A stretch of DNA of 64,000 nt from a virus. Each line of letters begins with the position of its first letter. Position 1 is the first letter of the stretch. The notes under the pieces were generated by a model. It worked only from the letters and a program-made list of their open reading frames with translations. It made no database searches and had not been told where the DNA came from. This document shows, one piece after another, positions 2,574 to 50,014 of this stretch. The translations under genes and the position numbers were made by a program. Where the stretch lies: the IMG/VR virus record IMGVR_UViG_3300045988_019905; one strand, given 5' to 3'.

Positions 2574-2846
2574 ATGGATAATATTGCTGATATTGAAGCA
2601 TCTATTGCTGAAGAAAGATTTATAGAAGATAATGCTTTATTTAAATGTGGTCAACGTGTGCATACATGGTTGAATGATAAACTTGTTGTTGGTATTATTG
2701 TTGATATAGATACTGATGGTGAAGAACATATAGTTTATGATGTAAATGTTGGTACAAGAGTGCTGCATTTCATTCCAGAGTATATGCTGATAACGGACAG
2801 TATCACAGCCGTAGATGCGGTTCTTTTGCCCACCATGCCATTTTGA
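2574..2846 (+). CDS. hypothetical protein (90 aa)
   Basis: The track ORF starts at 2496, inside a hairpin. ATG 2574 (MDNIADIE...) is the more plausible start. The last 14 codons overlap the conserved element R2-A. Confidence 0.45.
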   Translation: MDNIADIEASIAEERFIEDNALFKCGQRVHTWLNDKLVVGIIVDIDTDGEEHIVYDVNVGTRVLHFIPEYMLITDSITAVDAVLLPTMPF

Positions 2847-2909
2847 TATATCAGATGATTAATTGTATTAGTCAGACAGAAAGTGTCAAATTGAGCCTTA
2901 AAATGCCTG
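2804..2909 (+). repeat. R2-A: 106-nt conserved intergenic element, full copy
   Basis: CACAGCCGTAGATGCGG...GATTAATTGTATTA...CAGAAAGTGTCAAATTGAGCCTTAAAATGCCTG. Ungapped alignment to R2-E gives about 64 percent identity (hand count) with long identical blocks. It ends 24 nt before ATG 2934. Confidence 0.75.
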
Positions 2910-2933
2910 TTTAATTATATAATATTATATTTT

Positions 2934-3488
2934 ATGGATAATGTAGAATCTTATTTTCTTAGTGCTATTGATAGAATACTTGGTAAAGGTATTATTCGTA
3001 AGAATAGCGGTGCTGCGGATGTAGTTAATATGCTACATATTCGTTATGGTGTTTGTGTAGAGATAATGTGGTATCCTAATATTGGCAAATGGTGTCCTAA
3101 TGTTAGAACTATTGCATTTGAACCTCGTAATGTTGATAAGAGAGAACTTACTAACAATATAAGTCTTCTTGCTGAACTTTATAAGAGTTTTAGAGATGAT
3201 AATTATTATAAAGCTCTTAATGCTGGTATTCGTATTGCAGAGTTATATGTGATTAAACAACTTATTTATCGTAAAGATGAACAAATGAATAGTTTAATCC
3301 ATGACCAAGTTAAATACGAACGCATTACTGAACTTCTTGATAAATGTGATAATAGTTATATTCGTTTAGGACTTGAAGATAGAATTGATGACCAAGTTAC
3401 TCAAGAATATCTTGATGGTTCTATATACGAACATTTAACCAAATTCATTAATACTTATGGGTACACGACGACCATCAATGAAATATAG
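2934..3488 (+). CDS. hypothetical protein (184 aa)
   Basis: ORF directly downstream of R2-A. Confidence 0.6.
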   Translation: MDNVESYFLSAIDRILGKGIIRKNSGAADVVNMLHIRYGVCVEIMWYPNIGKWCPNVRTIAFEPRNVDKRELTNNISLLAELYKSFRDDNYYKALNAGIRIAELYVIKQLIYRKDEQMNSLIHDQVKYERITELLDKCDNSYIRLGLEDRIDDQVTQEYLDGSIYEHLTKFINTYGYTTTINEI

Positions 3489-4014
3489 AGATAACATCAA
3501 TGGTGTTCATGTCTATGATGTTGTAAGAATTGGGCGAGGTTATTTCAAAGAAAAACTTGCTATTTGTACTTGGGTAGATTTCTTAAAGCGAGAACTAAAA
3601 CTTAAAGTTATTGATAATGGTATTGATATTACTCTTAATAAGAATAGTGTTGATTTCTGTTATCATAATACTAAGACTGCTGCTAAACAATGGTTTGAAG
3701 TTATAGAACATAACTGTGCCAAGAATGCGAAGAATTGGTCAGATATTAAATATATCAGAGAACATTGGCATGATTTGCTTGCTATAAATAATTATTCTGC
3801 AAGAGCTATTGCTAAAATTGCTGAAGTCCATAGAAGAGATGATGATGCTTATTTAGAATGGCTTGAATACTACCGTAGACCTCTTGATGTTATATTTGCT
3901 TATCCTGATGTCGAGTTTTGTGATATTCTTATTAAAGATTTGGCAAGACATGAATGTAAGGAGTTTAGAGAAGATATTGTTAGAAAAATACATAACGCTG
4001 CGTGGAAAATTTAA
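3478..4014 (+). CDS. hypothetical protein (about 178 aa)
   Basis: The ORF is open from 3457. ATG 3478 overlaps the upstream stop (ATGAAATATAG). The start is uncertain (3457 or 3478). Confidence 0.55.
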   Translation: MKYRDNINGVHVYDVVRIGRGYFKEKLAICTWVDFLKRELKLKVIDNGIDITLNKNSVDFCYHNTKTAAKQWFEVIEHNCAKNAKNWSDIKYIREHWHDLLAINNYSARAIAKIAEVHRRDDDAYLEWLEYYRRPLDVIFAYPDVEFCDILIKDLARHECKEFREDIVRKIHNAAWKI

Positions 4015-4259: not shown

Positions 4260-4283
4260 GCTGGTATAGGTTGTATTCATTCT

Positions 4284-4316: not shown

Positions 4317-4338
4317 GACCATATTAATACAAATCATT

Positions 4339-4792: not shown

Positions 4793-5116
4793 ATGGGAAA
4801 ATATGATGAAGCGGTTGTAGTTAAAGAACTGGGTAGAAACCCTGCTGTAACCTTCAACGGTAAAACGATTAGTGTTGTGAAAAACACAAGTCTTATTGGT
4901 AATAGTTTTTGGGGAAGAATTGATTTCCTTACCAAATACTGTGGTTATACGCTTATTCAAGTGGACTTGGATGAACAACGAGCTGCTAAAATTGCTGAAC
5001 AAGAAGCAAAGAAAGCTGCTAAAGCTGCTGCTAAGGCTGAACGAAGAAAAGGTAAAGTAGACCTTATTGGTGCTGTTCGGTCGAATCTTACTAAAGGTAA
5101 ATTTAACAGAAAGTAA
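4793..5116 (+). CDS. hypothetical protein with Lys/Ala-rich C-terminus (107 aa)
   Basis: ORF. The tail reads AAKIAEQEAKKAAKAAAKAERRKGK. Confidence 0.55.
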   Translation: MGKYDEAVVVKELGRNPAVTFNGKTISVVKNTSLIGNSFWGRIDFLTKYCGYTLIQVDLDEQRAAKIAEQEAKKAAKAAAKAERRKGKVDLIGAVRSNLTKGKFNRK

Positions 5117-5122
5117 TATGTT

Positions 5123-5596
5123 ATGCCTACCTTTAAAGTGTCTTTTGGACTTAGTGCTAAATCTAAAAGACAAAAAGTAAGTAGCAAATATATTGTTGTA
5201 GAGACTAAATGTGATGGTATATTATGTATAGATAAAGAGGGAATTTATAGAGTTAAATACAAGGATAAAATGTATCCTCTTACTACTGAATCTTACGAGA
5301 CGCGAAATAAACGAGTTATATATGCTCGATGGCTTGATACTTATGGTCATAGAATTAAGATTATTCGTGACAGAGATAGTAGAAAAGCTACTGATATTAA
5401 ACATTATTGCGCTATTGCTCCTGGTCTATTAGCTCGTGGTAAACTTGTTAAAACAGCATTTAGTCCTATTATGTTCCATGTCGTAACGTGTTATAACGTT
5501 GCTGATGTTGAGGGTATGTCTCTTGCTTTTAATGAGTGGAGAGATTATGAGAAAAGAATTAAAAATGGTGAACTTGATATTGAAAATGAATTGTAA
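5123..5596 (+). CDS. hypothetical protein (157 aa)
   Basis: ORF. Its stop overlaps the next start (TAATG). Confidence 0.55.
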   Translation: MPTFKVSFGLSAKSKRQKVSSKYIVVETKCDGILCIDKEGIYRVKYKDKMYPLTTESYETRNKRVIYARWLDTYGHRIKIIRDRDSRKATDIKHYCAIAPGLLARGKLVKTAFSPIMFHVVTCYNVADVEGMSLAFNEWRDYEKRIKNGELDIENEL

Positions 5597-11529: not shown

Positions 11530-11549
11530 TGAAATAAGATTTATATTTG
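11519..11549 (+). promoter_or_regulatory. Bacteroidota-type sigma-A promoter candidate
   Basis: TTTG (11519-11522), 19 nt spacer, TATATTTG (11542-11549). About 30 nt upstream of ATG 11579. Confidence 0.45.
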
Positions 11550-18335: not shown

Positions 18336-18380
18336 GCGGGAGTTGCTGCGAATATTGTTCGTGGTAGCTCCCGCTTTTGT
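18336..18380 (+). terminator. rho-independent terminator
   Basis: GCGGGAG (18336-18342) pairs with CTCCCGC (18368-18374), followed by TTTTGTTTG. Confidence 0.7.
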
Positions 18381-18409
18381 TTGTCGGCTGATGTAAAACT
18401 GTGCTGCGA

Positions 18410-18515
18410 TGTGCCCGTAGATGCCACTCTTTTGCCCGTCATGGCATTTTCACCTATCGGCTGATGTCTTGTTAAGATTCAGATTTGCAGGCTGTGGTGA
18501 GCCTTAAAATGGCTT
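18410..18515 (+). repeat. R2-B: 106-nt conserved intergenic element, full copy
   Basis: TGTGCCCGTAGATGCCACTCTTTTGCCCGTCATGGCATTTT...GTGAGCCTTAAAATGGCTT. The anchor blocks have the same 106-nt spacing as in R2-A. It contains ATGCCA/TGGCAT arms (18421-18426 / 18442-18447) followed by TTTT. Confidence 0.7.
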
Positions 18516-18570
18516 GACCTTAACAAAGGTTAAATATAATAATTTTATAAAGTGGTCTGTATTATTTGTA

Positions 18571-18578
18571 TATATTTG
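18571..18578 (+). promoter_or_regulatory. possible -7 box TATATTTG
   Basis: TAnnTTTG match with no clear -33 TTTG. 13 nt before GTG 18592 and 25 nt before ATG 18604. Confidence 0.25.
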
Positions 18579-19389: not shown

Positions 19390-19391
19390 TT

Positions 19392-24924: not shown

Positions 24925-24947
24925 GTTCCCCCGTAGAGGATGTGCAC
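24925..24947 (+). repeat. GC-rich dispersed motif copy (intergenic, right half of an inverted pair)
   Basis: GTTCCCCCGTAGAGGATGTGCAC. Confidence 0.85.
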
Positions 24948-24976
24948 ATAATATTAATCCTCTAAATGCTAACAAT

Positions 24977-25631: not shown

Positions 25632-25742
25632 ATGAGTCTTAATAGAAAAGGTGGTAAAGGTGGAAGTGTAAGAATTGTTGATGGTGGTTATTATATTTGT
25701 GCTCGTTGTGGAAAGAAATTGACAAATTGGGAGCGATTTTAA
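25632..25742 (+). CDS. possible small CxxC protein (36 aa from the first ATG)
   Basis: The frame is open from 25419, overlapping the previous gene. The first in-frame ATG after the upstream stop is at 25632: MSLNRKGGKGGSVRIVDGGYYICARCGKKLTNWERF. The stop lies inside R2-C. Confidence 0.25.
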   Translation: MSLNRKGGKGGSVRIVDGGYYICARCGKKLTNWERF

Positions 25743-25777
25743 GCTCCGCTGTGAGACTTTATGCCTAAAGTAATATA
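25731..25777 (-). repeat. R2-C: partial (3' 47 nt) copy of the conserved element
   Basis: The reverse complement reads TATATTACTTTAGGCATAAAGTCTCACAGCGGAGCTTAAAATCGCTC, nearly identical to the 3' part of R2-E. It points into the antisense of the last + strand genes. Confidence 0.65.
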
Positions 25778-25850
25778 GTTGTTCAAAACGACAAAGAAAA
25801 CGGCAAGGCGAGCCGGAAAACCGCCAAAAAGCAATAGTTTAGTAATAGAA

Positions 25851-31900: not shown

Positions 31901-34900
31901 AACCCTCAACAACAAAAGCATATTTAATAATATCAATAGCAGTTAATCTAATAATAGGATTAGTATTATTAAAAGCTGCATCAAACATCTTATATACACT
32001 TTCCATGTCTTGTTGTTGGTCGTCAAAACGAATCACTTGACTACTAATACCACGAGTTCTAAACTCATAACCGTTAAATAGATTAACATTAAGACTATTA
32101 AAAATAGTACGTTGACTTCCACTTAAATGACGTTGTACAAAATGTACTTTTTGAGCAGGAGTAAGTTTAGAGAAAGCATTAACTTCTTCTTGTGTAGGAT
32201 TAGCAACATTAGCTATGTTAATATCATAGTTAATATCGTAACCAAATCCATAGATTCTTCTCTCTTCATCCTCTACGGGGGAACGTCCCTCTGATTCTAC
32301 TTTACTTGCTGTTAATATATCTACTGCAATATTACCATTTCTTTCAAGTTCAATAGGCTGTGATATAATAGCAGAATTATTCTTATACATATGTTCAAGA
32401 ACATACTTCTTAAAATCATTATAAAGTTTCTCATTAACAGTTCCACCAAGATAATTCTGAATACTCTTAATAGCATTAGTGAAAGCATAAGATTCAGTTT
32501 CAAATAAACCTTGATTAATAAGAATACTTGGAACTGTACTATATCTTAAGAATCCATCAAGTATTGGATAAGCACTATCTTCATTATTAGACGACAAGTA
32601 AATACTTGGCATGAAAGCTCCTTCTTCGGTAGCAGCAGTAATACCCGGATAAATAGCTTCAAGCAAAGGCTTATCTTTTACTTTAAGACGAGCAGCATCA
32701 TCACTACTAAGTATTGCACTTATATCATCAATAACTTTACGTGTACTAAATATAGTTTGTTTAGCTCCAAATTTATCAGGATTAAGTACTTTAACATGAT
32801 TAGCTATAATACGACTATAATCATTAATATAATTAAAGTTAAGTATAGCAGCTAAATCTATTAGTAAAGTAGATTCATCGTAAAGACCAGCATTTTGTGC
32901 TGCAAATCGTTCTTCAATAGTTGGAACGTCTATTGTAAATACATCAGCATTATCTCTATTATCAAAGCTAATAGTACTATTAGGATACATCTTAGCAAAC
33001 TCTTCTCCGTATTGTTGTTGAAGAGCTGTCATAACTTCCGTGATATTATTGTTATCAGTAACTACTTCATTACGTACTTTAACTCCTAAATCATGAGCAA
33101 CACGTTTAATTGCTGTATGAATAGGATTATAATTACCACGAACAAATACAGATTGAGATTCATAATAAGCCTCAACTATTCTACTAACACCTGGCTGACG
33201 AAGCCAAGCCATAGCTGTATAAGCATCACAACCAATATCAAATAGAGTTTTAAATGCAGCAAACGTATATTCATTCTCATTCTTAATAGCTCCTTCTTTG
33301 ATAGCATCAAGAATATGAGCGGTAGTATGAGAACTTGCAACTGTAATGTAGTCACCTACTACGTTCTTATTGTTTTTACTATTTCCTATTCGGTTATGAT
33401 AGACTATGCCATCTTTGACAGGAAATGCCTGAGCAGCAATATCAAGATTAACTCTATTACCATATCTTACTCTAATAGGAACACTAAGTTCAGCTTTAGC
33501 AACATTGAATACAGAGTTACCTGTATCGCGAGCAACACTAAATGCTTTCAATGTAGCACCTCCCATAGCATTTCTATGGAATTGAATCTGGTCAAAAAGA
33601 TTATAAACGTTTCTTTGTTTAGCACCAACAGCATCAAGTTTATCAAGAGCTTTATTTGCAGCAGTAATATCATCAAAGTTACTACGAGCAAGATTCTCTT
33701 CGAGACTTGATTTATCATTCATGATAGCAATCATACTATCAACGATACGATTGTTTCGAGCGCGACGGTTATTTTGGTCTTCAATAGGAAGCTGTTTAAA
33801 TTCCTCATAAGTAGGTAATCCAAAAGCAACAGCACGTTCATTAATAATATCTCCGAATTTATCTCTTGATAATTCTTTAATATCATCTATTGTAAGACTA
33901 TTAGCATTATCATTAATACGTCTGAACATATCTCTTTGTTCAGCAATAACGTCAGCTATTCTACTATACTTATCATAGAACTGTATAAATGCTGGATTAT
34001 CTCCATATAGTCTACTATAAGTAGGCATAATAGAAAGGAGTCCACTAACTCTATCAGCAAACTTCAATTCTTTATTACGAAGAAAACCATCAACAATAGG
34101 TTTAAATTCATCAGGCAATTCATGATAAGTATCACCCTCATCAAGAAGTTCTTTTACTCTCTTTTCAAGATAATCTTCTAAATCTTTATTACTCTTACGA
34201 ATAACTTCAAAATATTTATCTTTAATAGATTGTTTAGTATCTCTATCTACTTGAAGCATATCTCGTGTTATACGTTCTTTATCAGAATTTCTAAGAACAT
34301 GAGATACATATCTTCCATAAGTAGCAGCTTCAGCAGTACTATCGCTAAATTCTACTTTATGAATACGACCATCTTTACCAAGATAAGTCTCATAGGCAAT
34401 ACCATAAATAGAGTCAACGTCAAAGTCAGAACCAGTCTGTGTTACCCATTCATCTGGAACTACAATAGTACTTCCCATCCATTCAGGTAGAAAACCTACA
34501 ACTTTCATAACAGCCATAGACTGTTTACCCTCTGTTGGAATACGATAACCAATACATTTAAGAACTTCTTCATCAATATCTTCAATACGAATCTCTTTAA
34601 CAAGATTACCATTTTCATCATATTGATTGAACATAGCTTTTGCCCATTTAGGAAGAAGTATTTCTACTTCTGAGCCATCTTTATGATAGCCAAGTTCAAC
34701 ACGTTCACCAGTATCAGTTTCAATAGTTTCACCAGCTTTAAGTTGTTTACTCTTTTTAATAAGTCCATCAAGACCAACACTTGTTACTTGAGCAGCGTGC
34801 CATCCAGGAAGTTTTTGTCTTGTAATAAACTTATTAAATTGACTTTGAGCAATACTCTCAATTTTACTTGAGACAATATTCATATAATTAGGCATGACCG

Positions 34901-37900
34901 GACCAGCATCACCATTCTTAACAGAAAGATAATCAATAGTATTACTATCAAGTCCAAGACGAGCAGCCTCTACCATCGCTAATTTATAAATACGAGTATA
35001 ATCAACTTTACCGTTATTGTCTCCTATAATACGATAGTTCCTATCAAACTTAATACCATACTTATCCATAAGAGCATTAAAGTCCTCACGGATATTAGCA
35101 ACATAAGCTTTAATAAAATTATTCTTATGACTACTAACAGCAGCTTGGCTATTATCAAGTATCTTTTTCATTACTTGAATACCAGCTTTATTCTGTGCAT
35201 CAGTAATATGTTGAGGAACATCTTGTTGCTTATAAAGATACATATAACTGAATGGTTGTTTAACCTTTATAGCTTTCTCTTTAAATGCAGCAAGATTATC
35301 AGGAGTTACAACTCCTTCATTATCCCAATAAGTAAGTACATCATAATTAGCAGCTTTACTTGTTTCTTGAGTATTAACTTGGTCAATATCATTTTCTATC
35401 ATGAAATTGGCAAGTTCTCCTAAACTTGTTCCCTCAAGGAATTTAGGTACAAGAACAAACTCTGCATTCTTAATTTGACGAGGAAGATGTCTACCAAAAC
35501 GATTATTATAATAATGGTCATAGTAGAAGTTCTTCATTACCTGTATGAACGCTTGTAAATCATTAGGATTAATCTGATTAACATCAGTAGTAGCATCAGT
35601 AAGTTGCTTAATAAGTTTAGCATACTTAGGATATTCTCCTAATATCTTAAGACGACGAGCAGCTTCATATATAGTAATATAAGATTGAGCGTCATTAACA
35701 GTTGTAGTCGTAGCACTTGTTTCACCCTCATTCTCTTCAGGAACATAACCAAAACCTTCAGCAATTTCTCTTGCTTTATCTTTATTAGTTCCAGCTTCAA
35801 TAAGTTTATTATAAAGCATATTACGGTTAGTACTTGGACGAATACTATTCTTAATAGTAACAGCATTCCAACCAGTTCTAAGAGTTACAGCTTTACCGTT
35901 AGGGAATTTAAGAGCTTCATCTCCAACAGAAAGATAAGTACCAGCTACTTCATTAACTGATTGAGTAAACGGACTATCGTTCTCTTGAACAACCTTATAA
36001 TTAGCTATTGAATAACTTGTACCACCAGCTTGACTTTCCTTAGCACGTTTAAGGAATGTTTGAGGGTCTTTATAATACTTACTATTTCCTTCAAATAAAT
36101 CATCAAAATTAGCAAAATGAAGATAAGCATTAAGACCATATTCTGTAATCTCATAATCAGCAATACCCTCAAGGAAAGAACCAAACTTATTATGAGTCTC
36201 TCTAACAAAGTATTGTTGATAAGCATCAATCCATTTAGTAACAATATTATCAAGTTGGTCTTCAACATTTGCATCAAAAGTTATAGATGCAGACGCATTT
36301 GCAGATTCAGAATATCCTGTTAATTGTATGCCCCCCGTAGAGGATGTGGAGGCAACAAGTTCATCCATAGCTTGCTCAACATTATAACCAACAGTACTAT
36401 CAAGTTTAGTAAACTTAAAAGCATTACCAGTAAGTTTACCTTTATCTCTAATACCCTTTTTAGGATTATAATGAAACCATTCAACAAGATGTTCTTTATC
36501 ATTATGCTCAACATCATAAAGAGCTTTATAATAATCAAACAGTTCTCCTTTTAGAATATTAAGGAAACCATTATAAAGAGGATGACTCTTATTAATATTA
36601 CGAGCTTCGGGATGATTAGTTTTAAATTCTTCTTCTACTAATTGAGTAATAGCAGAACGATATTCACTAAGTTCATCACTGAAAATAGCTTGCCCTTGAT
36701 AAGTAGGATTCTCTATATAATAACTACCTTTACCGTCATCACTAAGAATACCACTGAAATAATGATATTGATAGCCCTCATTAGGTTTACTGATAACATA
36801 AGCAATAGTTTGACGTTCTCCAACTTTAGGTTTAAGATTAAGAACTTTAGCAGGACTTGTTTTAATACGTTCAGGAGTATTCATAACAAGATTAACTACT
36901 TCGTCAACAGAAGCATTCATTGCATTGAACTTAGTAAGTTGTTCATCTGCAATACTTAAATCAGCTACTTTAATAAGTTCATTAATTCTAAACTTAGTAT
37001 AAGCAGTCATAGCCGCTTTATCATAATTCCAAAGACCATCAGTAGAATACTTAGGCATACTTACTGCAAAGTTCTTAGGAGCATCTGAAGGGATTCTCAT
37101 TAAGAAAGGAGCAGTTTCAATTTGACGACCATTAGCAGTAGCAGTATTATATTTCTTATAAGTTTGAAGCTTTTTATGATAAGCATAAAGACCTACAAGA
37201 TAATAGTCACCGTCAGACATCTTGGTATAGTCAGCATTAGTACCAGCTTGTTGATTACTTACTCCATTAAGCAGATAAGGACTAATAAGTTTTTCTGCAT
37301 AAGGACTAAGTTCATATTCTCCATTAGGTTTAATTCTAAATAAACCAACTATGCCTTGTTCCGGTCTATCAATAAGAATATTACTATAAGCATATTCTGT
37401 AGATTTAAGTTTCTCTTTAACCCAAGCATTAAGAACATCTCTATCTCCACATATCTTAGCAATATTAGTAATGAAGTTATTATAGATAATATCACTATTA
37501 AGATTGCCTTCAACATTACGAGAATTAAGTTCAGCTTTAGAATATACATAAGGTTCAATAGCTTGAGCTATATTACCAAGTACTTCATCAGCTCCACGAA
37601 GATATTCTCCATCAAATTTAGGAAGTTCTTTCTCTACATATTTAGCATCTGTAACACCAGCCATTTGAGCTTGCTGATAATCAGCAAATCTTCTTCTGTT
37701 TTCTCTTTGTACTTCTCTATATTTAAAGTCTCTATCTTCCTTTTCAGCAAGACTTTGTTTTGCAGCACTATTAACTGTACGAAGATAACTAATAAGCTTA
37801 TCAACATTATCATTACGATGAGTGGCTACTGTTTGATTATTACGTTCAATGTAATTATCAATAGCTAACTCGTTCATACTTGGAAAGTATGTCTTATATA

Positions 37901-39290
37901 GTTCTTTAAGTTGACGAACTACATCATCAAATTTAGTAGCATTAGCTTGAGCAACAGAAGATTGAAGATTACCACGACGAGCGCTCTTAACTCCCGATAC
38001 TTTACCTGATGATTTAAATCTCTTAAATGCTTCATCAAGTTCATCAATTTGTCCCTCAATATCAATATTATCAGTCTGAATAGAACTACCTTTTAAATCA
38101 TTACGAAGATTAAAATATAGTTTACGAACAGGATTATTAGAAGTATTACTTTGAATAGATTTAATAGAACCAAAACCATCAATAGTAACTTCAAGTTTAT
38201 CAATAGTAAATTTATTTAAATCAGTATATATCTTATTAGCTAAATCAGAATTAGCACGCATATCATTAGCCAATTTAATAAATGCTGCAAATTCTTTCTT
38301 ATTATTAGCAACAACTTCAATAGCATCAATAAAATCATTAATAGATTTAAAACCGCCAAGATTACTAATAATATTAGAAAGTTCAATAGTACATTCTTGA
38401 TAAGTATGACAAGTAGGAACTCCAAGAGGATTACTACGGTCTACATCATAACGTCCATCATTATAACGTTGAGTACTATTAAAACGCTGCAAACTATCAA
38501 AGTATTGTCTAACTACTTCACTAATATGTTCAGTATAATTAGCAATATTAGAACCAAAATCCCATTGTTTAGTACTAAGGTCTACTTCATCTCCTTGTTC
38601 TACATCAGTGATAACATCTTCAGTATTATCACTCATAAGAGACAATTTGAAAGCCTCATCTTGAAAATCAGTATTACGTCCAAGAGCAGCAACTTTACTA
38701 TTATAGAATACTTCATTCCAAAAGTCTGGGTCACCAAGAGCACTTTGAACTAAATCTTTAAAGTTACGTTCTTGGTCAGTTCCATTTTCTTCAATAGCAT
38801 AATAGGCAGCTTCGATATTATTAATATCAAAACTGCCATATTGATTAGCTTTAACTATAAGTTGTTTTTTAAGAGCATTCTTTGCAGTAGCAATAAGACT
38901 TGTAACGTAATTCTCTTTACGTTTATCTGCATCAGAAGTTCTATAATTAACTGTACTAATAAGGTCTGCACAATATTGAGTAGCAGTATCAAACGCAGCT
39001 TGACTACGAAAAGCATACATACCACTATTAGCATTTACTTTAGAAGTATTATTAACATTAAAGAAGTTTCTATTACGATACTCTTTAATAAGACGACGGA
39101 GAACATTCTTGTTAATACTTTCAAGATTATCCGTCTTAGCAACTGCATCTTCTCTACAATATTGAAGGAATCCATCAGTTTTGAGAAGTGCTCCAAGTTT
39201 ATAACAATCAGCAGGATTGTTATTTTCGAGTTCCTTAATTACATCATTAACTTTAGGAACATTATGAAATTCAATAGAACATCCGTCCAT
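25929..39290 (-). CDS. giant virion protein containing a crAss-type virion RNA polymerase core (4453 aa)
   Basis: Single uninterrupted 13.4-kb ORF. TGSDFDVDSIYG (DFDVD at 34413-34427, about aa 1622-1626) matches the DxDxD metal-binding motif of the YonO/phi14:2 gp66-like two-barrel RNAP found in the largest proteins of crAss-like phages. It is the last gene of the internal-protein block. The C-terminal part has hydrophobic Gly/Ala-rich segments. Confidence 0.65.
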   Translation of the reverse strand: MDGCSIEFHNVPKVNDVIKELENNNPADCYKLGALLKTDGFLQYCREDAVAKTDNLESINKNVLRRLIKEYRNRNFFNVNNTSKVNANSGMYAFRSQAAFDTATQYCADLISTVNYRTSDADKRKENYVTSLIATAKNALKKQLIVKANQYGSFDINNIEAAYYAIEENGTDQERNFKDLVQSALGDPDFWNEVFYNSKVAALGRNTDFQDEAFKLSLMSDNTEDVITDVEQGDEVDLSTKQWDFGSNIANYTEHISEVVRQYFDSLQRFNSTQRYNDGRYDVDRSNPLGVPTCHTYQECTIELSNIISNLGGFKSINDFIDAIEVVANNKKEFAAFIKLANDMRANSDLANKIYTDLNKFTIDKLEVTIDGFGSIKSIQSNTSNNPVRKLYFNLRNDLKGSSIQTDNIDIEGQIDELDEAFKRFKSSGKVSGVKSARRGNLQSSVAQANATKFDDVVRQLKELYKTYFPSMNELAIDNYIERNNQTVATHRNDNVDKLISYLRTVNSAAKQSLAEKEDRDFKYREVQRENRRRFADYQQAQMAGVTDAKYVEKELPKFDGEYLRGADEVLGNIAQAIEPYVYSKAELNSRNVEGNLNSDIIYNNFITNIAKICGDRDVLNAWVKEKLKSTEYAYSNILIDRPEQGIVGLFRIKPNGEYELSPYAEKLISPYLLNGVSNQQAGTNADYTKMSDGDYYLVGLYAYHKKLQTYKKYNTATANGRQIETAPFLMRIPSDAPKNFAVSMPKYSTDGLWNYDKAAMTAYTKFRINELIKVADLSIADEQLTKFNAMNASVDEVVNLVMNTPERIKTSPAKVLNLKPKVGERQTIAYVISKPNEGYQYHYFSGILSDDGKGSYYIENPTYQGQAIFSDELSEYRSAITQLVEEEFKTNHPEARNINKSHPLYNGFLNILKGELFDYYKALYDVEHNDKEHLVEWFHYNPKKGIRDKGKLTGNAFKFTKLDSTVGYNVEQAMDELVASTSSTGGIQLTGYSESANASASITFDANVEDQLDNIVTKWIDAYQQYFVRETHNKFGSFLEGIADYEITEYGLNAYLHFANFDDLFEGNSKYYKDPQTFLKRAKESQAGGTSYSIANYKVVQENDSPFTQSVNEVAGTYLSVGDEALKFPNGKAVTLRTGWNAVTIKNSIRPSTNRNMLYNKLIEAGTNKDKAREIAEGFGYVPEENEGETSATTTTVNDAQSYITIYEAARRLKILGEYPKYAKLIKQLTDATTDVNQINPNDLQAFIQVMKNFYYDHYYNNRFGRHLPRQIKNAEFVLVPKFLEGTSLGELANFMIENDIDQVNTQETSKAANYDVLTYWDNEGVVTPDNLAAFKEKAIKVKQPFSYMYLYKQQDVPQHITDAQNKAGIQVMKKILDNSQAAVSSHKNNFIKAYVANIREDFNALMDKYGIKFDRNYRIIGDNNGKVDYTRIYKLAMVEAARLGLDSNTIDYLSVKNGDAGPVMPNYMNIVSSKIESIAQSQFNKFITRQKLPGWHAAQVTSVGLDGLIKKSKQLKAGETIETDTGERVELGYHKDGSEVEILLPKWAKAMFNQYDENGNLVKEIRIEDIDEEVLKCIGYRIPTEGKQSMAVMKVVGFLPEWMGSTIVVPDEWVTQTGSDFDVDSIYGIAYETYLGKDGRIHKVEFSDSTAEAATYGRYVSHVLRNSDKERITRDMLQVDRDTKQSIKDKYFEVIRKSNKDLEDYLEKRVKELLDEGDTYHELPDEFKPIVDGFLRNKELKFADRVSGLLSIMPTYSRLYGDNPAFIQFYDKYSRIADVIAEQRDMFRRINDNANSLTIDDIKELSRDKFGDIINERAVAFGLPTYEEFKQLPIEDQNNRRARNNRIVDSMIAIMNDKSSLEENLARSNFDDITAANKALDKLDAVGAKQRNVYNLFDQIQFHRNAMGGATLKAFSVARDTGNSVFNVAKAELSVPIRVRYGNRVNLDIAAQAFPVKDGIVYHNRIGNSKNNKNVVGDYITVASSHTTAHILDAIKEGAIKNENEYTFAAFKTLFDIGCDAYTAMAWLRQPGVSRIVEAYYESQSVFVRGNYNPIHTAIKRVAHDLGVKVRNEVVTDNNNITEVMTALQQQYGEEFAKMYPNSTISFDNRDNADVFTIDVPTIEERFAAQNAGLYDESTLLIDLAAILNFNYINDYSRIIANHVKVLNPDKFGAKQTIFSTRKVIDDISAILSSDDAARLKVKDKPLLEAIYPGITAATEEGAFMPSIYLSSNNEDSAYPILDGFLRYSTVPSILINQGLFETESYAFTNAIKSIQNYLGGTVNEKLYNDFKKYVLEHMYKNNSAIISQPIELERNGNIAVDILTASKVESEGRSPVEDEERRIYGFGYDINYDINIANVANPTQEEVNAFSKLTPAQKVHFVQRHLSGSQRTIFNSLNVNLFNGYEFRTRGISSQVIRFDDQQQDMESVYKMFDAAFNNTNPIIRLTAIDIIKYAFVVEGYQFRRGNVSKVIKNSALYTSREDGGTGIIDSIRFGVSAISDKELVANNIYEDYIRSHSNIPQIPTYRVRFNKGKSNLTYLPNSQKMYYFNLGTAKDTELAKEIRIVRDITDKLGKTKTVLATNYINIVRNKVSTLYKVAIYGEGNNREIYLIPLNQLEANEHGEFSSNPLNNKYPAARYYEAIIQQSRDKLMPFSRLAEEKNELFTKEGIEPYKYKKPTVDKEVIVPTDKNFIATISSEDAAVRNLIRRINDKFANPNTKVYWAWNGSQTLKQAFGTLNIQSRQTIVDNNGVERDYLISRRSVKLNKKISDDAQLEGLELAKRNGVKSTDSIYLITPYKEAETIEVEKNAEDVEHASSIDMDIESTNISKLGNLAQQFLLDIKTRARVSSDENASIAYEDILKYGVDESKIASIEERKQDTIKRASEYYITKAHEIERRLNDFMKDNEGNSHSIVSSYTIEMIQANEQLRNDYISLVLQASTFGNSFPLINQIATDNVDDTTRRNIKGIQETINNIKNNPILKEGFEVVAEKIFKPLSTNPNFDKGLSNITNYILKDASVLDWLFQDAQELSYPIVQIILRQAKTKIDKLMFEGDEYVRNYKKQLATIKADAAKAGKSIDWNHIVDPVTGRFVSNYTDDFINDKREINKKVAEAKDKYGEYSREYLRARHEKEQWYLDNAEQRYVPEYYRRKVENEAKMLTDYNIDYYIKYLRLNDERNRLLRIFKGNRTEEDNANIKRLGSEIREMQNHIDFNTGEWKSQNDYNRAISLKAYIDEVTKIKKAFFERETREGFAEDLKHYLGIINKYKHFDSAGRQIENEAALLQIDEYASAVEWLNENTYYRIDEKLQAAINDAFAVFNDGKEEKNPQFRSIIQHTDGAYDNYGVIDGRQFTEKQVEAIKKEQEAQIANRANDGTSAEVKLLRNKAPITEIYSKKFYAGFSSATTPSPVVSHTRNAIVKEINDILKDALNPNTGKIKLSDLTIDQIRELSGLYDRLDETKRLHRKDEKVKKFLKEEVEFHTDKVTYAIDEDAAKQKGKEFFAAWRTIANAKNYDENGIFIGYTNEPNSDIFGYVTPKLDDNGNVINKDYVDEKRSKALKFLNENVEFVPTSYYWQAREDAIKAGKLKEFEDANHILNPLTGKMEPIRIWTTIQVKDESGNARNYAPSYNNTRSKPLPNTVNPNYNRYTANYNGSDKYRKADTANEYERNIRGLMQNMLYDLTKDNNTAMSFVSKGLFPRRRRVEANFGNTVKAAFNAIGFGQSLDPDRHISDNIGYEYDRETNIPLLAQLKDKSYRKLEEIPEQGLTESDEDYKARVEDIKKRNEEAIEHNKKIDVQLMDKDYESVFEEFIKGAIQANAKTQTKLDLYYLLEYMRTQAQAYRLTGFNNLAVDRRTSTEDRKVYKTQVPQRTIDLIETWSKRFLFDEYKGKNTWDKFAAVGQNIASAKYMMFNITGGIGNVLTGATNIFMERYAGEYFNHADWENAKFGYYVKAMPAFLTNMGSDTSNNLTDAIIKLMGVVDYNGIRETARTVDAIEIINKMRNFAYSPQSAGEHFMQNTAMIAMMISNRVYKNQKGEIVIGDFHNYNRMLEDVALRKVIEGNTELEELYAKFINRVKEDKNRLKDYLWFKKDVNTEFLRSLSDKTYGLRYAEVRNELTKEAKKEFDTLPKLIDQFELKDGYAKLKDDSLVDLGKLAAFKGKVVSVNKKIHGVYDRLGGARIESSWVFGSLLMQYHKHIYTGALKHFRNNGYYNESRESIERGFYVSLWDFATTEFKGIGDRAKAKANDDGTNIFIAGVQQVCRAFIDTFLNYKFNYATMSNAERANVRRALGELTGIAYGLLGGIAASCALIAADDDDEAAKIIANLALYQADRLSSETIMYNIGAVSEFDKLWSSPVALGQSFKDVQSAFGFIAKYFIEGDEFNPNYTTGLYKGENKLSVYVKRQIPIYRGINRIMQLDQNNKYYKLTENMLGIIPTQSIAEWVVNGK
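28174..28193 (-). repeat. GC-rich dispersed motif copy (inside the giant gene)
   Basis: CTTCTTCTACGGGGGAAAAG. The coding strand encodes FPRRRR. Confidence 0.8.
32267..32285 (-). repeat. GC-rich dispersed motif copy (inside the giant gene)
   Basis: CATCCTCTACGGGGGAACG. The coding strand encodes SPVEDE. Confidence 0.9.
36331..36352 (+). repeat. GC-rich dispersed motif copy (inside the giant gene)
   Basis: CCCCCCGTAGAGGATGTGGAGG. The coding strand encodes STSSTGG. Confidence 0.9.
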
Positions 39291-39313
39291 AGGTTTATCT
39301 TTATAAGAACGTC

Positions 39314-39355
39314 CGGCAGACGAGCGATTTTAAGGCTCTCTGCCGAACTTTCTTG
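39314..39355 (-). repeat. R2-D: partial copy of the conserved element embedded in a long hairpin
   Basis: CGGCAGA-C-GAGC-GATTTTAAG-GCTC-TCTGCCG (39314-39345). The reverse complement contains GAGCCTTAAAATCGCTC. The box ends 37 nt upstream of ATG 39290. Confidence 0.6.
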
Positions 39356-47907: not shown

Positions 47908-47918
47908 AATTATCAATA

Positions 47919-49877
47919 TTAAAATGTAACACCTTTACTTGTAAACAATCTACGGTCAACATTAGGATGTGTAGCATCATAGATACCAAGAGTATTATTA
48001 TAATTTCTACGATTTTCAATACGACTAAGCATATCTTGAAGTCCAGCATTAATACCACTAAACATATTATTAAGAGAACTTGCTTTCTGTTCACGAATAC
48101 TATTACGGAAAGCGGCACTACGATTCTGCCAATCGTTCATAGCAGCAACATTAGTAGCTCTAACACCTTGCTTATTCAATCTATCTTGATTAATAAGTTG
48201 TGTTTCAATGTTCTCTTTTTGTCCACGAAGACTGTTCTTAGAAGTTTGTGCTTGATTACGAGTTCTTTGAAGTCTTTGTAGACGAGTTCTACTACTTGAA
48301 GTATTAGCATTAATATCAGTAGCCATACGACGAGCATTCTCTTCAATCTCTCCAAGTTGTGGACTAATGTTAAAATCAGTTTTAAGATTAGACGCTACAA
48401 CAGAATTAGGTTGAGGAGGAGCTTCCATATTATTAAGTGCTTTACGAGTATTAATACCGCTTGCAATAGTACCAGCAAGATTAGCACCAAGACCTATAAT
48501 ATCATTAGTGTCAAGTTTATCAAATAAAGCAAGTCTCTTACGAGGAGAACTAATAGTATCAGGAACGCCAGCATTAGTACTTGCGCCATCAACAGTACGA
48601 GTAGGTATCGTAGTTGGAATATTTCTTGATAAAGTAGGAAGTCCTTGCATCATACTATCAAGACTTGCAAATTTAGGAGCAGCAGTAGGTGTAGCAGTAG
48701 CAGAAGTTTTAGTAGTTTTGCTACTTCCACTTCTCCTACGGGGGGCAGAACTTGTAGCAGGTTTAGATGTCTTAGTTGCAGCTGTAGTAGCAGGAGCTTC
48801 TTCAATAGGAGTAACTCTTGTCTGTGGAGCACTATTTGTACTTCTTGTTCCAGTATTTCTGTTACCACCACTATAAGTTCCAGGAGTAAATTCAGGAACT
48901 TCTAACATATTTCTAAAGTCAGTTCTTGCACCTTTAGCGTCTCTACTTGCAGCATCAGTAACTTGTTTACGTTGTGCAGCAGCATCTCTTGCATAACTTG
49001 AAGCATCAGGATAACGAGTATCATAACTACCACGTCTAACAGTAAATCCTCTATTAGAACCAGAATTATTTTTACTACGACTTCCAGCACTATTTCCAGT
49101 TGCTCTATATTGAACAGGATTAAAAGGTTCTATAAAATTATTACCTTTTGGAATAGAACTATTAGCAACAGAAGCTTTAGCATCACGTTTAGCAGCAGCT
49201 CGTACTTGTCTATCAGATTTACGAGCAGCAGCACCACGACCATCAAGTAATCTACTATTAGGAACATCATCGTCAATAGGTAGATAAGCAGTTTCGCCAA
49301 ATTCATCATTAGTAACTTGATAAAGTTGTCCGTTCATAACAACATAATCTTTATCTCTCTTATCAGTACCAAGTGCAGCTTTTTTCCTACCCCCCGTAGG
49401 AGAAGGAAAAGGAACGTCTCCTACGAGCTTATCAATAACATTACCATTAACAGTAACAAAACCACCAGCAGCTTTTCTATTTTTATTAGGAACTAAACCA
49501 AGTTCTTCATCTATCTCAGTATTAGTTCTTCTACGAATCTTAACTTTACCACCCATACGTTTTTTACTTCCATCGTCATTAATTCCATTTACATCTTTAA
49601 ATGTTTCTTGTGCTTGAAACACTTTATCAGGATTAGCACCACCCATTACAAGTTTAGCAGGACTATTACCATTAATAATAGGTTGAGCACTAAATACTCT
49701 TAGACTATCTGGTCGTGTTTCGACAATCTCTCCATCTTCGACTTCTAAACCAGTCTTAGGATTCTTGCCAATATCAATACCACCTTGAGAGTGTTTACGA
49801 CCATTCATATAGTAAAGATTACCACCAATGTTAGTTGCTTTACCACCTCTAACTACATTTGGTTTAATTTTAGTCAT
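47919..49877 (-). CDS. putative virion internal protein, largely low-complexity (652 aa)
   Basis: A globular N-terminal region of about 100 aa (YYMNGRKHSQGGIDIGKNPKTGLEVEDGEIVE) is followed by about 400 aa rich in Ser/Thr/Arg/Ala/Pro. Confidence 0.55.
   Translation of the reverse strand: MTKIKPNVVRGGKATNIGGNLYYMNGRKHSQGGIDIGKNPKTGLEVEDGEIVETRPDSLRVFSAQPIINGNSPAKLVMGGANPDKVFQAQETFKDVNGINDDGSKKRMGGKVKIRRRTNTEIDEELGLVPNKNRKAAGGFVTVNGNVIDKLVGDVPFPSPTGGRKKAALGTDKRDKDYVVMNGQLYQVTNDEFGETAYLPIDDDVPNSRLLDGRGAAARKSDRQVRAAAKRDAKASVANSSIPKGNNFIEPFNPVQYRATGNSAGSRSKNNSGSNRGFTVRRGSYDTRYPDASSYARDAAAQRKQVTDAASRDAKGARTDFRNMLEVPEFTPGTYSGGNRNTGTRSTNSAPQTRVTPIEEAPATTAATKTSKPATSSAPRRRSGSSKTTKTSATATPTAAPKFASLDSMMQGLPTLSRNIPTTIPTRTVDGASTNAGVPDTISSPRKRLALFDKLDTNDIIGLGANLAGTIASGINTRKALNNMEAPPQPNSVVASNLKTDFNISPQLGEIEENARRMATDINANTSSSRTRLQRLQRTRNQAQTSKNSLRGQKENIETQLINQDRLNKQGVRATNVAAMNDWQNRSAAFRNSIREQKASSLNNMFSGINAGLQDMLSRIENRRNYNNTLGIYDATHPNVDRRLFTSKGVTF
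48724..48748 (-). repeat. GC-rich dispersed motif copy (inside the 652-aa gene)
   Basis: CTTCCACTTCTCCTACGGGGGGCAG. The coding strand encodes SAPRRRSGS. Confidence 0.9.
49387..49406 (+). repeat. GC-rich dispersed motif copy (inside the 652-aa gene)
   Basis: CTACCCCCCGTAGGAGAAGG. The coding strand encodes PSPTGGR. A local partner TCTCCTACG lies at 49417-49425. Confidence 0.9.
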
Positions 49878-49908
49878 CTTATAATATTATTATATAATTA
49901 TAGCATTT

Positions 49909-50014
49909 CAGCCGTTTTAAGGCTTGCTGTGAGACTTTCTGCCAAAGTAATACTATTAATCACTTCGCATACTAAAGTCCAACAGGCAAGCGGAAAAGCG
50001 GCTCTATGGCTGTG
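49909..50014 (-). repeat. R2-E: 106-nt conserved intergenic element, full copy
   Basis: The reverse complement reads CACAGCCATAGAGCCGC...GATTAATAGTATTACTTTGGCAGAAAGTCTCACAGCAAGCCTTAAAACGGCTG. It fills the gap between the stop at 50016 and ATG 49877. Confidence 0.75.

Follow-up and report, generated by a model that had tools for sequence, protein, structure and literature searches.

R2, a repeated non-coding hairpin element at gene-block junctions of crAss-like phages and a candidate gene-expression control signal

Gene context and copies of R2

The window, a 64,000-nucleotide stretch of viral DNA (IMG/VR record IMGVR_UViG_3300045988_019905), belongs to a crAss-like phage whose gene order is syntenic with that of p-crAssphage. 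It carries a family of repeats, termed R2, a non-coding element of about 110 bases with a long hairpin fold that is located at junctions between gene blocks. R2 is a previously undescribed candidate for a gene-expression control signal, and a phage that carries it is among the most abundant viruses of the human gut. The copies and two associated features of the window are as follows.

2804..2927 (core 2804-2909), plus strand: R2-A, full copy (covariance model 94 bits, E=6e-15)
18336..18374, plus strand: intrinsic terminator with an 18-bp stem and a TTTTGTTTG tail, from the terminator scan
18394..18399, plus strand: TAAAAC block, 15-17 nt upstream of the CGTAGA box
18410..18533 (core 18410-18515), plus strand: R2-B, full copy (covariance model 89 bits)
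25713..25835, minus strand: R2-C, degenerate full-length copy that aligns end to end with E and A
39305..39354, minus strand: R2-D, mini copy, a 50-nt, 19-bp hairpin with CUUAAAAUC in the loop
49891..50014, minus strand: R2-E, full copy (covariance model 71 bits; fold z=-3.7)
55151..55276, minus strand: R2-F, full copy (covariance model 38 bits, E=1e-4)

R2-A is placed between an ORF at 2496..2846 and an ORF starting at 2934, and its 5' half covers the final 43 nt of the first. R2-B lies 35 nt downstream of the terminator at 18336-18374, which is context outside the repeat, and is followed by dNMP kinase and ThyX genes (two ORFs match Pfam DNMK and Thy1). R2-C comes behind the giant gene and its putative terminator, and no gene follows it on that strand. 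R2-D precedes the start (39290) of the gene encoding the 4453-aa virion RNA polymerase, a homologue of p-crAssphage gp44. R2-E begins 2 nt past the stop of ORF 50016..50648, and the gene at 49877 that follows it is gp47-like and the first of a block ending in the RNA polymerase gene. R2-F lies between ORF 55358..56266, whose synteny and motif position align it with gp50, the tail-tubular gene of p-crAssphage, and a 1511-aa ORF starting at 55161; its box GGGCTTTAAAAT ends 16 nt upstream of that ATG.

An earlier sequence-only reading had listed A, B and E as full copies and C and D as partial 3' copies. The repeat is real and A, B and E are true copies (covariance model, 71-94 bits), with coordinates and anchor blocks as first given, whereas a fourth full copy, R2-F, had been missed. 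C and D are both related to R2, the former being a degenerate full-length copy rather than a 3' fragment and the latter a mini hairpin version. R2-C scores just 14 bits (E=2.5) and folds no better than shuffles (z=-0.4); its CRTAGA box is lost and its helix decayed, and the local hairpin GGAGC-UUAAAAUC-GCUCC is retained. The reading also placed B and C after a terminator. For B this is borne out by the scan, which calls a strong one, whereas for C it holds by eye alone: a hairpin and T-run follow the giant gene, and the terminator scan listed nothing there.

The sequence AGCCTTAAAA occurs exactly four times in the window (2894, 18500, 39328 and 49915, the last two on the minus strand) against 0.36 expected, and none of 100 shuffles matched this count. 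Ungapped identity over 106 positions is 68 for A/E, the same as an earlier hand count, 62 for A/B and 41 for B/E, compared with 29.6 +/- 5.4 (maximum 55) in 20,000 random pairs of 106-mers from the window. The distances from the box to the next start (30, 82, 37 and 37 nt at A, B, D and E) were recomputed and are correct. Over the copies in general this distance is 16-38 nt, mostly 30-38 nt, and it is 36-38 nt at E sites in three genera. R2 is also GC-richer than ordinary spacers, as had been noted (copies 0.36-0.50; mean of 14 other spacers 0.32, range 0.27-0.38), and the copies differ by 2 nt in length.

Remnants of a duplicated coding segment, an origin that the first reading had allowed for, were rejected because the copies have no reading frame in common. 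Almost all of 31 distinct copies contain 1-6 stops per frame in every frame; open frames are limited to one each in the window copies A and E and one, in a different frame, in L032. A search of the whole window against Rfam 15, with tRNA, ribozymes, Y RNA and phage RNAs included, gave no match at the gathering thresholds. At permissive E-values, two copies gave chance matches to miRNA-precursor models alone, with 8-20 bits against thresholds of 36-100. ARAGORN called no tRNA gene in the window.

Conservation across crAss-like genomes

The covariance-model search that had been suggested earlier detected copies in the window, in p-crAssphage and in related genomes, so that conservation in related phages is present. 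Four matches are found in the window and four in p-crAssphage, and the two genomes share copies at the junctions gp09|gp10, gp25|gp26 and gp48|gp47. The counterparts of R2-A and R2-B in p-crAssphage are located at 5017-5140 (gp09-gp10) and 19572-19695 (gp25-gp26), respectively. The E-site copy was found in about 30 related loci from Carjivirus-like lineages and the window's own genus, together three genus-level lineages, at a distance of some 15-400 nt before the part of the gp47-like gene that matched. R2-F has orthologues in the close relatives L129 and L130 (38.5 and 39 bits). Others belong to a different genus, where L151 scores 29.6 bits (E about 0.03-0.07) and L131 and L152 were recognized by eye. 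Another genus also keeps the 82-nt spacer of the D site, in which two C-to-T changes convert G-C pairs into G.U. The coding DNA of genera that share R2 junctions is just about 70% identical.

Site-specific features are conserved as well. B-site orthologues keep ATTTGCG and an upstream TAAAAY; the block before R2-B reads TAAAAC, TAAAAT or CAAAAT in all of them (five upstream flanks). The order of terminator and then R2 at this site is also found in p-crAssphage and two other lineages. The claim that R2 always follows local transcription holds in the window and in 15/15 further loci, which are all in coding-strand orientation, the exception being one degenerate antisense relic at p-crAssphage 86100-86212. 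R2 may tentatively be regarded as a cis-acting, non-coding module kept at four to six fixed gene-block junctions in this genus, Carjivirus and a third genus.

Pairing and fold of R2

The two halves of R2 pair through a 13-bp helix, P1, and a UUUU/AAAA helix. The structure consists of a 4-bp outer helix, a CUU bulge, P1 and an apical rod. In a MAFFT alignment made independently of structure, 88.2% of cells pair, compared with 30-49% when the partners are slid. Double (compensatory) changes are found in 8/13 P1 pairs, and the covariation score of 0.372 (0.195 in shuffles) was reached by 0/500 shuffles. Compensated helices also differ between paralogues of one genome, for example CTCTG/CAGAG and CTACA/TGTGG in p-crAssphage. 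Half-sites that co-vary with a dimeric DNA-binding protein were ruled out on this ground, because paralogues within a single genome carry different compensated helices.

The pairing is biased to the sense strand. Among 19 non-redundant copies, which are not independent of each other, G.U exceeds A.C by 32 to 16 (2:1). Folding favours the sense strand in 15/19 copies, by a mean of 2.9 kcal/mol. One recurrent C.A mismatch in the helix is G.U on the opposite strand. R2-D folds with an MFE of -27 kcal/mol (z=-4.7). Fold z is -7 to -8 in two p-crAssphage copies, about -3.6 in the E copies of p-crAssphage and the window (pE and wE), -0.7 to -1.2 in the window copies A, B and F, and +0.3 in the p-crAssphage B copy (pB).

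The box is carried on helices of variable sequence, namely AGCC/GGCT in B and E, GGAGC/GCUCC in C and GAGC/GCUC in D. The local hairpins formed in this way have loops of 7-9 nt and are present in the window copies B, C, D and E, and they are not conserved in p-crAssphage. The apical sequence TGATTAATCTATCACGAT is common to three p-crAssphage copies and TGATTAATWGTATTA to the window copies A and E. Such lineage-specific sequences shared by paralogues fit recognition by a trans-acting factor or else gene conversion between copies.

Imperfect palindromes of this kind are known from other genomes. The PeSL (promoter-early stem-loop) cassettes of T4-type phages and the ERIC and Correia repeats are repeated intergenic stem-loops with expression signals; they are imperfect palindromes, about 100 nt in length, and become part of mRNAs. 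R2 resembles them in being a repeated intergenic imperfect palindrome of about 100 nt, and a selfish repeat of the MITE, ERIC or Correia type that spread into intergenic DNA and is slowly decaying, with at most incidental effects, could account for its varying intactness (R2-C and the relic at 86100-86212 are decayed). Terminal inverted repeats are clear solely in the p-crAssphage A copy, where TTCTTTTGCCCT and AGGGCAAAAGAA are near-perfect, and gene conversion could explain the lineage-specific sequence of the paralogues. This origin is nevertheless very unlikely. Unlike the known palindromic repeats, R2 copies are few, strictly co-oriented with genes in the window and the 15 further loci, and syntenic across three genera at identical junctions despite the divergence of the coding DNA. 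The helix is maintained by compensatory changes, and orthologues keep the site-specific features of the B sites. No signs of recent mobility and no known transposase accompany R2, and target-site duplications were not noted, no systematic search having been made. The mobile palindromic repeat class was rejected on synteny and co-orientation.

Promoters, terminators and possible roles of R2

Promoters of the crAss-like phage phi14:2 have been mapped and are of the Bacteroidetes sigma-A type, TTG-N19-TAnnTTTG (bioRxiv 10.1101/2020.03.07.982082). Middle-promoter motifs were reported by Drobysheva et al. in other crAss-like phages upstream of gp069 homologues (E site) and the RNA polymerase gene (D site) (bioRxiv 10.1101/2020.03.07.982082). 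The motif used here comes from the phi14:2 promoters that this work names, and a crAss-like middle promoter was defined as a -7 box TAnnTTTG located 5-28 nt before an ATG and preceded by TTG at 19-20 nt. Close to genes, the window has TAnnTTTG boxes at 11542, 14583, 16682, 18571, 23597 and 57943(-). An upstream TTG accompanies three of them (11542, 14583 and 57943(-)), and the last is the sole canonical promoter found next to a listed minus-strand gene start. The window scan found no TAnnTTTG box inside R2-A, D, E or F or immediately behind them. R2 was therefore rejected as a promoter of the phi14:2 type, which is present elsewhere in the window. Sigma-70-type promoters were likewise not found on the sense strand of the A and E copies, and the sole sense-strand match close to a copy lies just downstream of R2-B.

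R2 was also rejected as an intrinsic terminator, because no sense-strand terminator is called inside any copy and the helix is followed by CUUAAAAU rather than a U tract. At the E site the scan lists no terminator on the coding strand, and inspection of the spacers upstream of D and F reveals no terminator hairpin. Since no terminator is predicted just upstream, RNA polymerase should read through D, E and F, as is also expected from the single canonical minus-strand promoter at 57943.

The main rival explanation, which is possible but doubtful, takes R2 as a regulatory DNA region or an internal promoter specific to the phage. The 3' box, TAAAAT or, in distant relatives, nAnAAT, would be -10-like or else serve a weak promoter as its A-rich upstream block, TTTTGC would act like a -33 element, the CRTAGA and TGATTAAT blocks would bind a phage-encoded activator, and a start just past the box would give a 10-30-nt A/U-rich leader. 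The crAss-like middle and late "extended tripartite" promoters (bioRxiv 10.1101/2020.03.07.982082) resemble R2 in being sense and intergenic and in lying upstream of the gp069 homologue and the RNA polymerase gene, so that R2 coincides with reported middle-promoter sites. Their TTTGC -33 element resembles the TTTTGC of R2, and their A-rich block has a similar distance to the ATG: 36-40 nt on the two phi14:2 promoters measured (g070 and g093) and 30-38 nt from the end of the TTAAAA(Y) box at A, D and E, which may be a coincidence in A/T-rich spacers. A strong terminator precedes R2-B, and in distant relatives a terminator is followed by hairpin, box and ATG in turn. In these relatives the post-box leader TCATAATAATTAATA equals the sequence after the mapped -7 box of phi14:2 g108, and two junctions have a duplicated box, sense-oriented and about 32 nt ahead of the ATG. 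The mini copy R2-D retains the box module alone. However, R2-A, D, E and F are devoid of the -7 box that defines the tripartite promoters and of the mapped TTG-N19-20-TAnnTTTG type, and A and E have no sigma-70-type promoter. The last box position is C in the window E copy and L035, and the p-crAssphage A copy has GGGCAAAAGAAC instead. R2-C faces no gene. A promoter needs no base-pairing, and yet R2 has a covarying long-range helix, lacking in the tripartite promoters, that is selected even among paralogues of one genome. The hairpin promoters of N4-type virion RNA polymerases have a 5-7-bp stem and a 3-nt loop and serve early genes only. This class was rejected for R2, whose hairpin is about 100 nt long, whose box hairpins have loops of 7-9 nt and whose copies occur in the replication and virion modules.

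Three options had been offered for R2 by the first reading, namely a promoter or leader, a regulatory RNA and a family of small RNA genes. A cis-acting structured RNA or leader is favoured among them because of the covariation, the sense-strand G.U bias, the fixed box-to-start distance and the read-through expected at D, E and F, whereas stand-alone small-RNA genes find no support. Independent genes that have a promoter and a 3' end of their own would suit the size of about 100 nt and the rod shape, and the conserved TAAAAY before the B copies could be -10-like. Such genes are most unlikely: no terminator follows any copy, the upstream regions of A, E and F have no common promoter motif, and no promoter and terminator pair is recognizable. 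Moreover, the copies abut the start of the next gene, some overlap the end or stop codon of the upstream ORF, and none matches Rfam.

Protein-binding regulatory RNAs form another class. The lambda nut (boxA and boxB) and HK022 put sites are cis-acting antitermination RNAs in the sense orientation that head long operons. Like them, the window copies B, C, D and E have a small hairpin with a conserved A-rich loop and a variable stem. R2 might thus be a processive antitermination site or a translational operator, with a phage protein on the box and apical loop, an explanation that we consider improbable. It would fit the loop and box displayed on variable helices, the apical sequences common to paralogues, the fixed start-codon distance and the position of copies ahead of very long genes and operons, namely the RNA polymerase gene of 13 kb and the block that runs for about 10 kb from the gp47-like gene to the gp45-like one. 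In contrast to nut and put, no boxA consensus was seen by eye, the copies are not placed between promoter and terminator, and several occur per transcription unit; the small hairpin is not kept in p-crAssphage, and no candidate for the binding protein was identified. The nut/put class was rejected for the lack of boxA and the position of R2-B past a terminator and of R2-C beyond the last one.

The reading that we favour, with some reserve and short of calling it probable, is that R2 serves as cis-acting RNA punctuation in polycistronic messages, setting the downstream leader by processing or protein binding. Transcription of R2, its cleavage or binding and a resulting effect on gene expression are inferred. 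R2 would be co-transcribed with the genes in a long polycistronic RNA, and its 5' half (UCUUUUGCYC...UUGAAU) would pair with the 3' half into a long imperfect hairpin composed of the UUUU/AAAA helix, the conserved 3-nt CUU bulge, the 13-bp P1 and a self-complementary apical part. The conserved box GAGC-CUUAAAAU would then stand at the 3' foot of the hairpin or, in the mini copy R2-D, in the loop. Hairpin and box may be recognized by an endonuclease or a phage protein, which would leave the upstream message with a protective 3' hairpin and give the downstream gene block a defined, unstructured A/U-rich leader.

Several observations count against this punctuation model. The stability of the hairpin is uneven over the copies, the G.U excess is a modest 2:1 in copies that are not independent, and one recurrent C.A mismatch would be G.U on the opposite strand. 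R2-B lies just after a strong terminator in all lineages, a classic place for a promoter region rather than for an RNA signal between cistrons, and the analogous E-site hairpins of distant relatives are likewise found after a terminator. The invariant single-stranded 5' box C(A/G)TAGA-N6-TCTTTTGC is unaccounted for by processing.

The proposed mode of action may be likened to that of the RNase III sites between phage T7 genes. These sites (R0.3 ... R18.5) are paralogous intercistronic hairpins with two helical segments around an asymmetric bulge or loop, co-oriented with transcription, present in the early and late regions and sharing sequence between copies. R2 differs in its length (about 100 nt), in having one copy after a strong terminator and in its invariant single-stranded boxes CRTAGA and CUUAAAAU, which RNase III does not need. 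As in T7, several paralogous, co-oriented intercistronic hairpins occur per genome in early and late regions, and R2 has the T7-type structure of about two helical turns and a bulge, several copies being weakly stable and cleavage putative.

Copies of R2 in the window and in related phages

The window has a G+C content of 32.7%, and its genes point rightward as far as about 25.7 kb and, from 25.9 kb on, leftward. The gene order is shared with p-crAssphage (Carjivirus communis, BK010471), and the coding DNA of the two is ~70% identical. A 4453-aa ORF of the window is a homologue of p-crAssphage gp44, a virion RNA polymerase fusion protein, and the ORFs downstream of R2-B include dNMP kinase and ThyX. 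No genome near-identical to the window was found in the INPHARED phage collection; the closest relatives are IMG/VR contigs with 96-99% protein identity.

Copies of R2, an intergenic hairpin element of ~110 bases, were searched for with a covariance model built from 24 copies from several phages. The window contains the following:

Copies of R2 in the window
2804-2909 (+), R2-A, full copy, 94 bits
18410-18515 (+), R2-B, full copy, 89 bits
25713..25835 (-), R2-C, degenerate copy
39305..39354 (-), R2-D, short form
49909-50014 (-), R2-E, full copy, 71 bits
55151-55276 (-), R2-F, fourth full copy, 38 bits (E=1e-4)

The sequence-only reading had placed R2-A, R2-B and R2-E correctly, and its hand-counted ungapped A/E identity of 68/106 was reproduced exactly (random pairs of 106-mers give 29.6 +/- 5.4). 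Its list was incomplete in that R2-F had been missed. R2-C, which had been taken for a 3' fragment, aligns end to end with R2-E and R2-A; its 5' box is gone and its folding is lost. R2-D, described as a partial copy, is a genuine short form consisting of a 50-nt hairpin with CUUAAAAUC in the loop (z=-4.7). The 10-mer AGCCTTAAAA occurs 4 times in the window vs 0.36 expected, and the copies are richer in G+C (36-50%) than 14 other spacers (27-38%), as had been claimed. ORF 2496..2846 extends 43 nt into R2-A (2804-2846(+)). A textbook terminator precedes R2-B, also as described earlier. Between this terminator and R2-B, at 18394-18399(+), lies a block of the type TAAAAC/TAAAAT/CAAAAT that resembles the 3' box of R2 itself; it stands 15-17 nt ahead of the CGTAGA box and is conserved in all four B-site lineages, with orthologous B sites in L035, L066, L042 and the L007:19555 region.

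Four full copies were identified in p-crAssphage with the covariance model, three of which are the counterparts of window sites A, B and E:

Full copies of R2 in p-crAssphage
5017-5140, gp09/gp10 junction
19572-19695, gp25/gp26 junction, again directly after a terminator
26315-26438, gp37/gp38 junction
52726-52851 (-), gp48/gp47 junction

Around the gp47-like gene, 61 loci were obtained by a protein-anchored fetch; together with a pattern scan of IMG/VR they place an E-site copy in the 30 loci that belong to three lineages at genus level (protein identity 36-99%). Conservation of sites D and F extends from the genus of the window to a third genus. Syntenic copies in p-crAssphage and in the third genus thus answer the earlier concern that R2 might have no conservation in related phages. 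BLAST of R2 against 50,697 phage records matched the Carjivirus clade alone, and matches to the exact long R2 pattern in IMG/VR were confined to near-identical phages. A looser pattern, CRTAGA-N6-TCTTTTGCYC, additionally picks up RHRxxSxxxxSxRY, a coding motif of ThyX, by chance.

The orientation of R2 with local transcription, noted earlier for the window, was found in 15/15 further loci, where the flanking long ORFs lie on the strand of R2; one antisense exception exists elsewhere. In those further loci with a downstream ORF inside the fetched stretch, the next ORF starts 8-81 nt past the model end. The exception is a degenerate R2-like sequence (19 bits) at p-crAssphage 86100-86212 (L008:36100-36212 (+)). 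It lies in the 342 nt that separate gp75 from gp76 (the portal gene) and is oriented against the genes. This relic retains AATGATCAATCTATCACGAAATGA and a GAGC-TTAAAAT-GGCTC hairpin without the long-range helix, and is the sole antisense copy seen; the window does not extend to the corresponding region.

Anatomy and base pairing of R2

Parts of R2, from the 5' to the 3' end
Part 1: C(A/G)TAGA
Part 2: six variable bases
Part 3: TCTTTTGC(C/T)C, continuing into the 5' arm of the helix (...TTGAAT)
Part 4: TTTT and a loosely conserved ATATAT
Part 5: apical segment with TGATTAAT, self-complementary within each copy
Part 6: 3' arm of the helix, last bases GAGC
Part 7: CTT
Part 8: AAAA(T/C)

A long rod is predicted by RNAalifold and by single-sequence folds. 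Pairing was examined in a MAFFT alignment fitted to no structure, the specified structure being the 13 pairs of helix P1 plus UUUU/AAAA. This structure is paired in 88.2% of cells vs 30-49% when the partners are slid by 1-3 columns, and both partners have changed in 8/13 P1 pairs. For covariation, the score is 0.372 vs 0.195 +/- 0.018 in shuffles and was reached by 0/500 of them, a significance that is overstated because the sequences are related. The slid-partner control and the comparison of paralogues are the stronger arguments for pairing. Paralogous helices in one genome differ in a compensated manner (CTCTG/CAGAG in the p-crAssphage E copy vs CTACA/TGTGG in the gp37/gp38 copy), and two double substitutions separate orthologous E sites (GCTCTC/GAGAGC vs GCTTGC/GCAAGC). 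Because these helices are different and compensated, selection acts on base pairing itself and not on the match of half-sites to a dimeric protein. The stability of the hairpin varies greatly among copies.

Strand evidence moderately favours RNA or a sense single strand. Among 19 non-redundant copies, G.U and A.C pairs number 32 vs 16, and in 15/19 the sense strand folds better than its complement, on average by 2.9 kcal/mol. At the D site, two C-to-T changes distinguish the hairpins of the genera and give G.U pairs on the sense strand; one recurrent C.A mismatch points against sense-strand RNA.

The apical sequences are lineage-specific yet common to paralogues: three copies of p-crAssphage carry TGATTAATCTATCACGAT, and copies A and E of the window carry TGATTAATWGTATTA. 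This pattern suggests either co-evolution with a trans-acting factor or gene conversion among the copies. A nut/put-like or operator RNA appears distinctly unlikely, and a decaying selfish palindrome very unlikely. The invariant 5' box, CRTAGA-N6-TCTTTTGC, is accounted for by no model considered. At some sites this box overlaps the end of the upstream ORF: the p-crAssphage gp48 terminus ...GGHRR* lies inside R2-E (L008:2834-2851), and the annotated stop codon of gp37 is the TAG of the CATAGA box (L007:26315-26325). A small hairpin around CRTAGA was dropped as a conserved structure, as its register varies among copies.

Several known identities were considered. The earlier suggestion that the copies might be remnants of a coding segment is contradicted by stops in every frame of nearly all of 31 distinct copies. 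ARAGORN finds no tRNA or tmRNA, the anticodon-like CUUAAAA loop being a false lead, and Rfam gave no match to R2 at gathering thresholds and nothing beyond chance matches at permissive E-values. Hammerhead-like CUGAUGA/GAAA cores, boxA, the IHF consensus and an analogy to Ro/Y-RNA were each dropped by eye as inconsistent between copies, and terminator scans led to rejection of R2 as an intrinsic terminator. No published text with the R2 box or motif strings was found in the literature search.

That R2 represents a novel class of structured regulatory RNA, organising the gene-expression programme of crAssphage-type phages, is unlikely. One possible form would be a factor-dependent switch acting on antitermination or translation, with an apical loop in co-evolution with a phage-encoded protein. 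Another would be a self-processing RNA in which the conserved unpaired nucleotides (CRUAGA, the CUU bulge, UGAUUAAU and CUUAAAAU) serve as a catalytic or ligand-binding core.

Message punctuation and promoter readings

To our knowledge, almost nothing is known of gene control in the prototypical crAssphage and its close relatives, and such promoters as have been mapped belong to a distant marine relative. No transcript maps or data for Carjivirus-like phages were found in the literature searched. R2 is a compact, conserved and testable cis-element that precedes several key blocks: the nucleotide-metabolism operon, the operon whose last gene encodes the virion RNA polymerase, the gene for this polymerase, and the gene for a large virion protein. 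A decision between processing site, protein-binding RNA and unusual promoter would open a first way into the temporal control of genes in these phages, including control in the phage-plasmid lifestyle recently proposed for Carjivirus. Parts for engineering these phages would be a further gain, and the R2 covariance model is a specific clade marker for metagenomes.

The middle promoters of the crAss-like phage phi14:2 have been mapped and a tripartite motif described, with similar motifs upstream of gp069 and RNA polymerase gene homologues in other crAss-like phages (Drobysheva et al.). The phi14:2 motif was re-derived from the genome at the named promoters as an A-rich block, TTG, 19-20 nt, TAnnTTTG and 5-28 nt to ATG. 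Gene-proximal TAnnTTTG boxes in the window include the following:

TAnnTTTG boxes near gene starts in the window
57936-57943 (-), box with an upstream TTG at ~19 nt
18571-18578 (+), box without an upstream TTG
11542-11549 (+), box with an upstream TTG also flagged

All three are boxes of the Bacteroidetes promoter type with the sequence TATATTTG and lie 9-29 nt before start codons. This spacing, compared with 5-28 nt in the phi14:2 promoters, would imply near-leaderless messages for some genes. The window scan found no TAnnTTTG box within or directly after R2-A, D, E or F, and R2 as the known crAss-like promoter type was therefore rejected. Downstream of R2-B, a sigma-70-like TTGACC-N18-AATAAT is followed by a TAnnTTTG-type box, which suggests tandem start signals. 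A sigma-70/Bacteroides-type promoter in the 5' half of R2 (TTGCCC-N17-TATAAT) is perfect in the p-crAssphage A copy only; by inspection and promoter scans, TATAT alone recurs elsewhere.

More distant relatives gave no match to the R2 covariance model. At the same junction they carry, in this order, a terminator, a hairpin and a related box, GGCTnGAAAT-AAGTCA, with a leader rich in A/T some 32 nt ahead of the ATG, and the box with its leader occurs at two junctions per genome. A phage-specific promoter region is the main rival reading of R2, a real if doubtful possibility. B-type copies and the analogous hairpins of the distant relatives directly follow terminators, R2 sites coincide with reported middle-promoter motif sites, the box resembles a -10-like nAnAAT, and the post-box leader of the distant relatives agrees base for base with what follows the mapped -7 box of phi14:2 g108. 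However, the critical last position of the box varies, R2 is without the canonical -7 box, and the selected base pairing is left unexplained.

No coding-strand terminator was predicted at R2-E by the scan, and the spacers ahead of D and F show none by eye. The sole canonical promoter beside a listed gene start on the minus strand of the window lies upstream, at 57943. For these reasons, R2-D, E and F should be part of a long message in which the hairpins form in RNA. Stand-alone sRNA genes are hardly probable at all as an explanation of the copies. The distances of 30, 82, 37 and 37 nt from box to start codon counted in the sequence-only reading hold in the window. The conserved box, which sits at the hairpin foot or, in the mini copy, in the loop, keeps an almost constant distance of 30-38 nt to the following start codon, and the sequence between is A/U-rich and conserved between paralogues. 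Read-through, this spacing and this conserved stretch lead us to favour, tentatively and short of an even chance, an element that punctuates the mRNA. Once a nuclease or a phage protein had recognised hairpin and box, the upstream RNA would keep a 3' hairpin and the downstream block would get a defined leader. This outcome would resemble that at T7 RNase III sites. The punctuation and promoter readings are compatible, as the hairpin closing one message could be joined to the signal that starts the next.

A dispersed G+C-rich motif

The string CCGTAGA occurs 20 times in the window vs 2.4 expected, an eight-fold enrichment that comes mostly from an element other than R2. This is a dispersed G+C-rich motif of ~20 nt with the consensus ..AC(C/T)CCCCGT(A/G)GAGGATG(G/T).., present at 10 positions in the window: 1540(+), 4287(-), 10630(+), 16964(+), 24930(+), 28177(-), 32270(-), 36334(+), 40410(-) and 55971(+). 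p-crAssphage (L007+L008) has 31 sites. No paper with the motif string was found in the literature search.

The motif is located on both strands, in spacers and in long ORFs in several frames, where it reads as PPVED or TPRGG in sense and as SSTGG, LYGG or HPLRG in antisense. In the two genera it often occupies orthologous places (SNF2 ATPase, DNA ligase, gp45-like, gp50-like and the spacers at 1.5/4.3 kb). The motif is a putative DNA-level signal. In the window, it forms the 5' arm of two spacer hairpins with no T-run after them, one at 1528-1600(+) (AGAGGATG...CATCCTCT at 1545-1592) and one at 24925-24975(+) (AGAGGAT...ATCCTCT at ~24935-24968). Several p-crAssphage copies occur in close inverted pairs 26-435 bp apart, and that at 22902/22928 is perfect.

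In the gp44 alignment, the window ORF 25929..39290(-) reads 'KVIEG-----NTELEEL' vs 'VINTPRGGENQAL' in p-crAssphage (position 30490). The p-crAssphage motif copy at 30490 coincides with the 5-residue insertion TPRGG, absent from the window protein, which suggests that at least some copies of the motif arose as short in-frame insertions.
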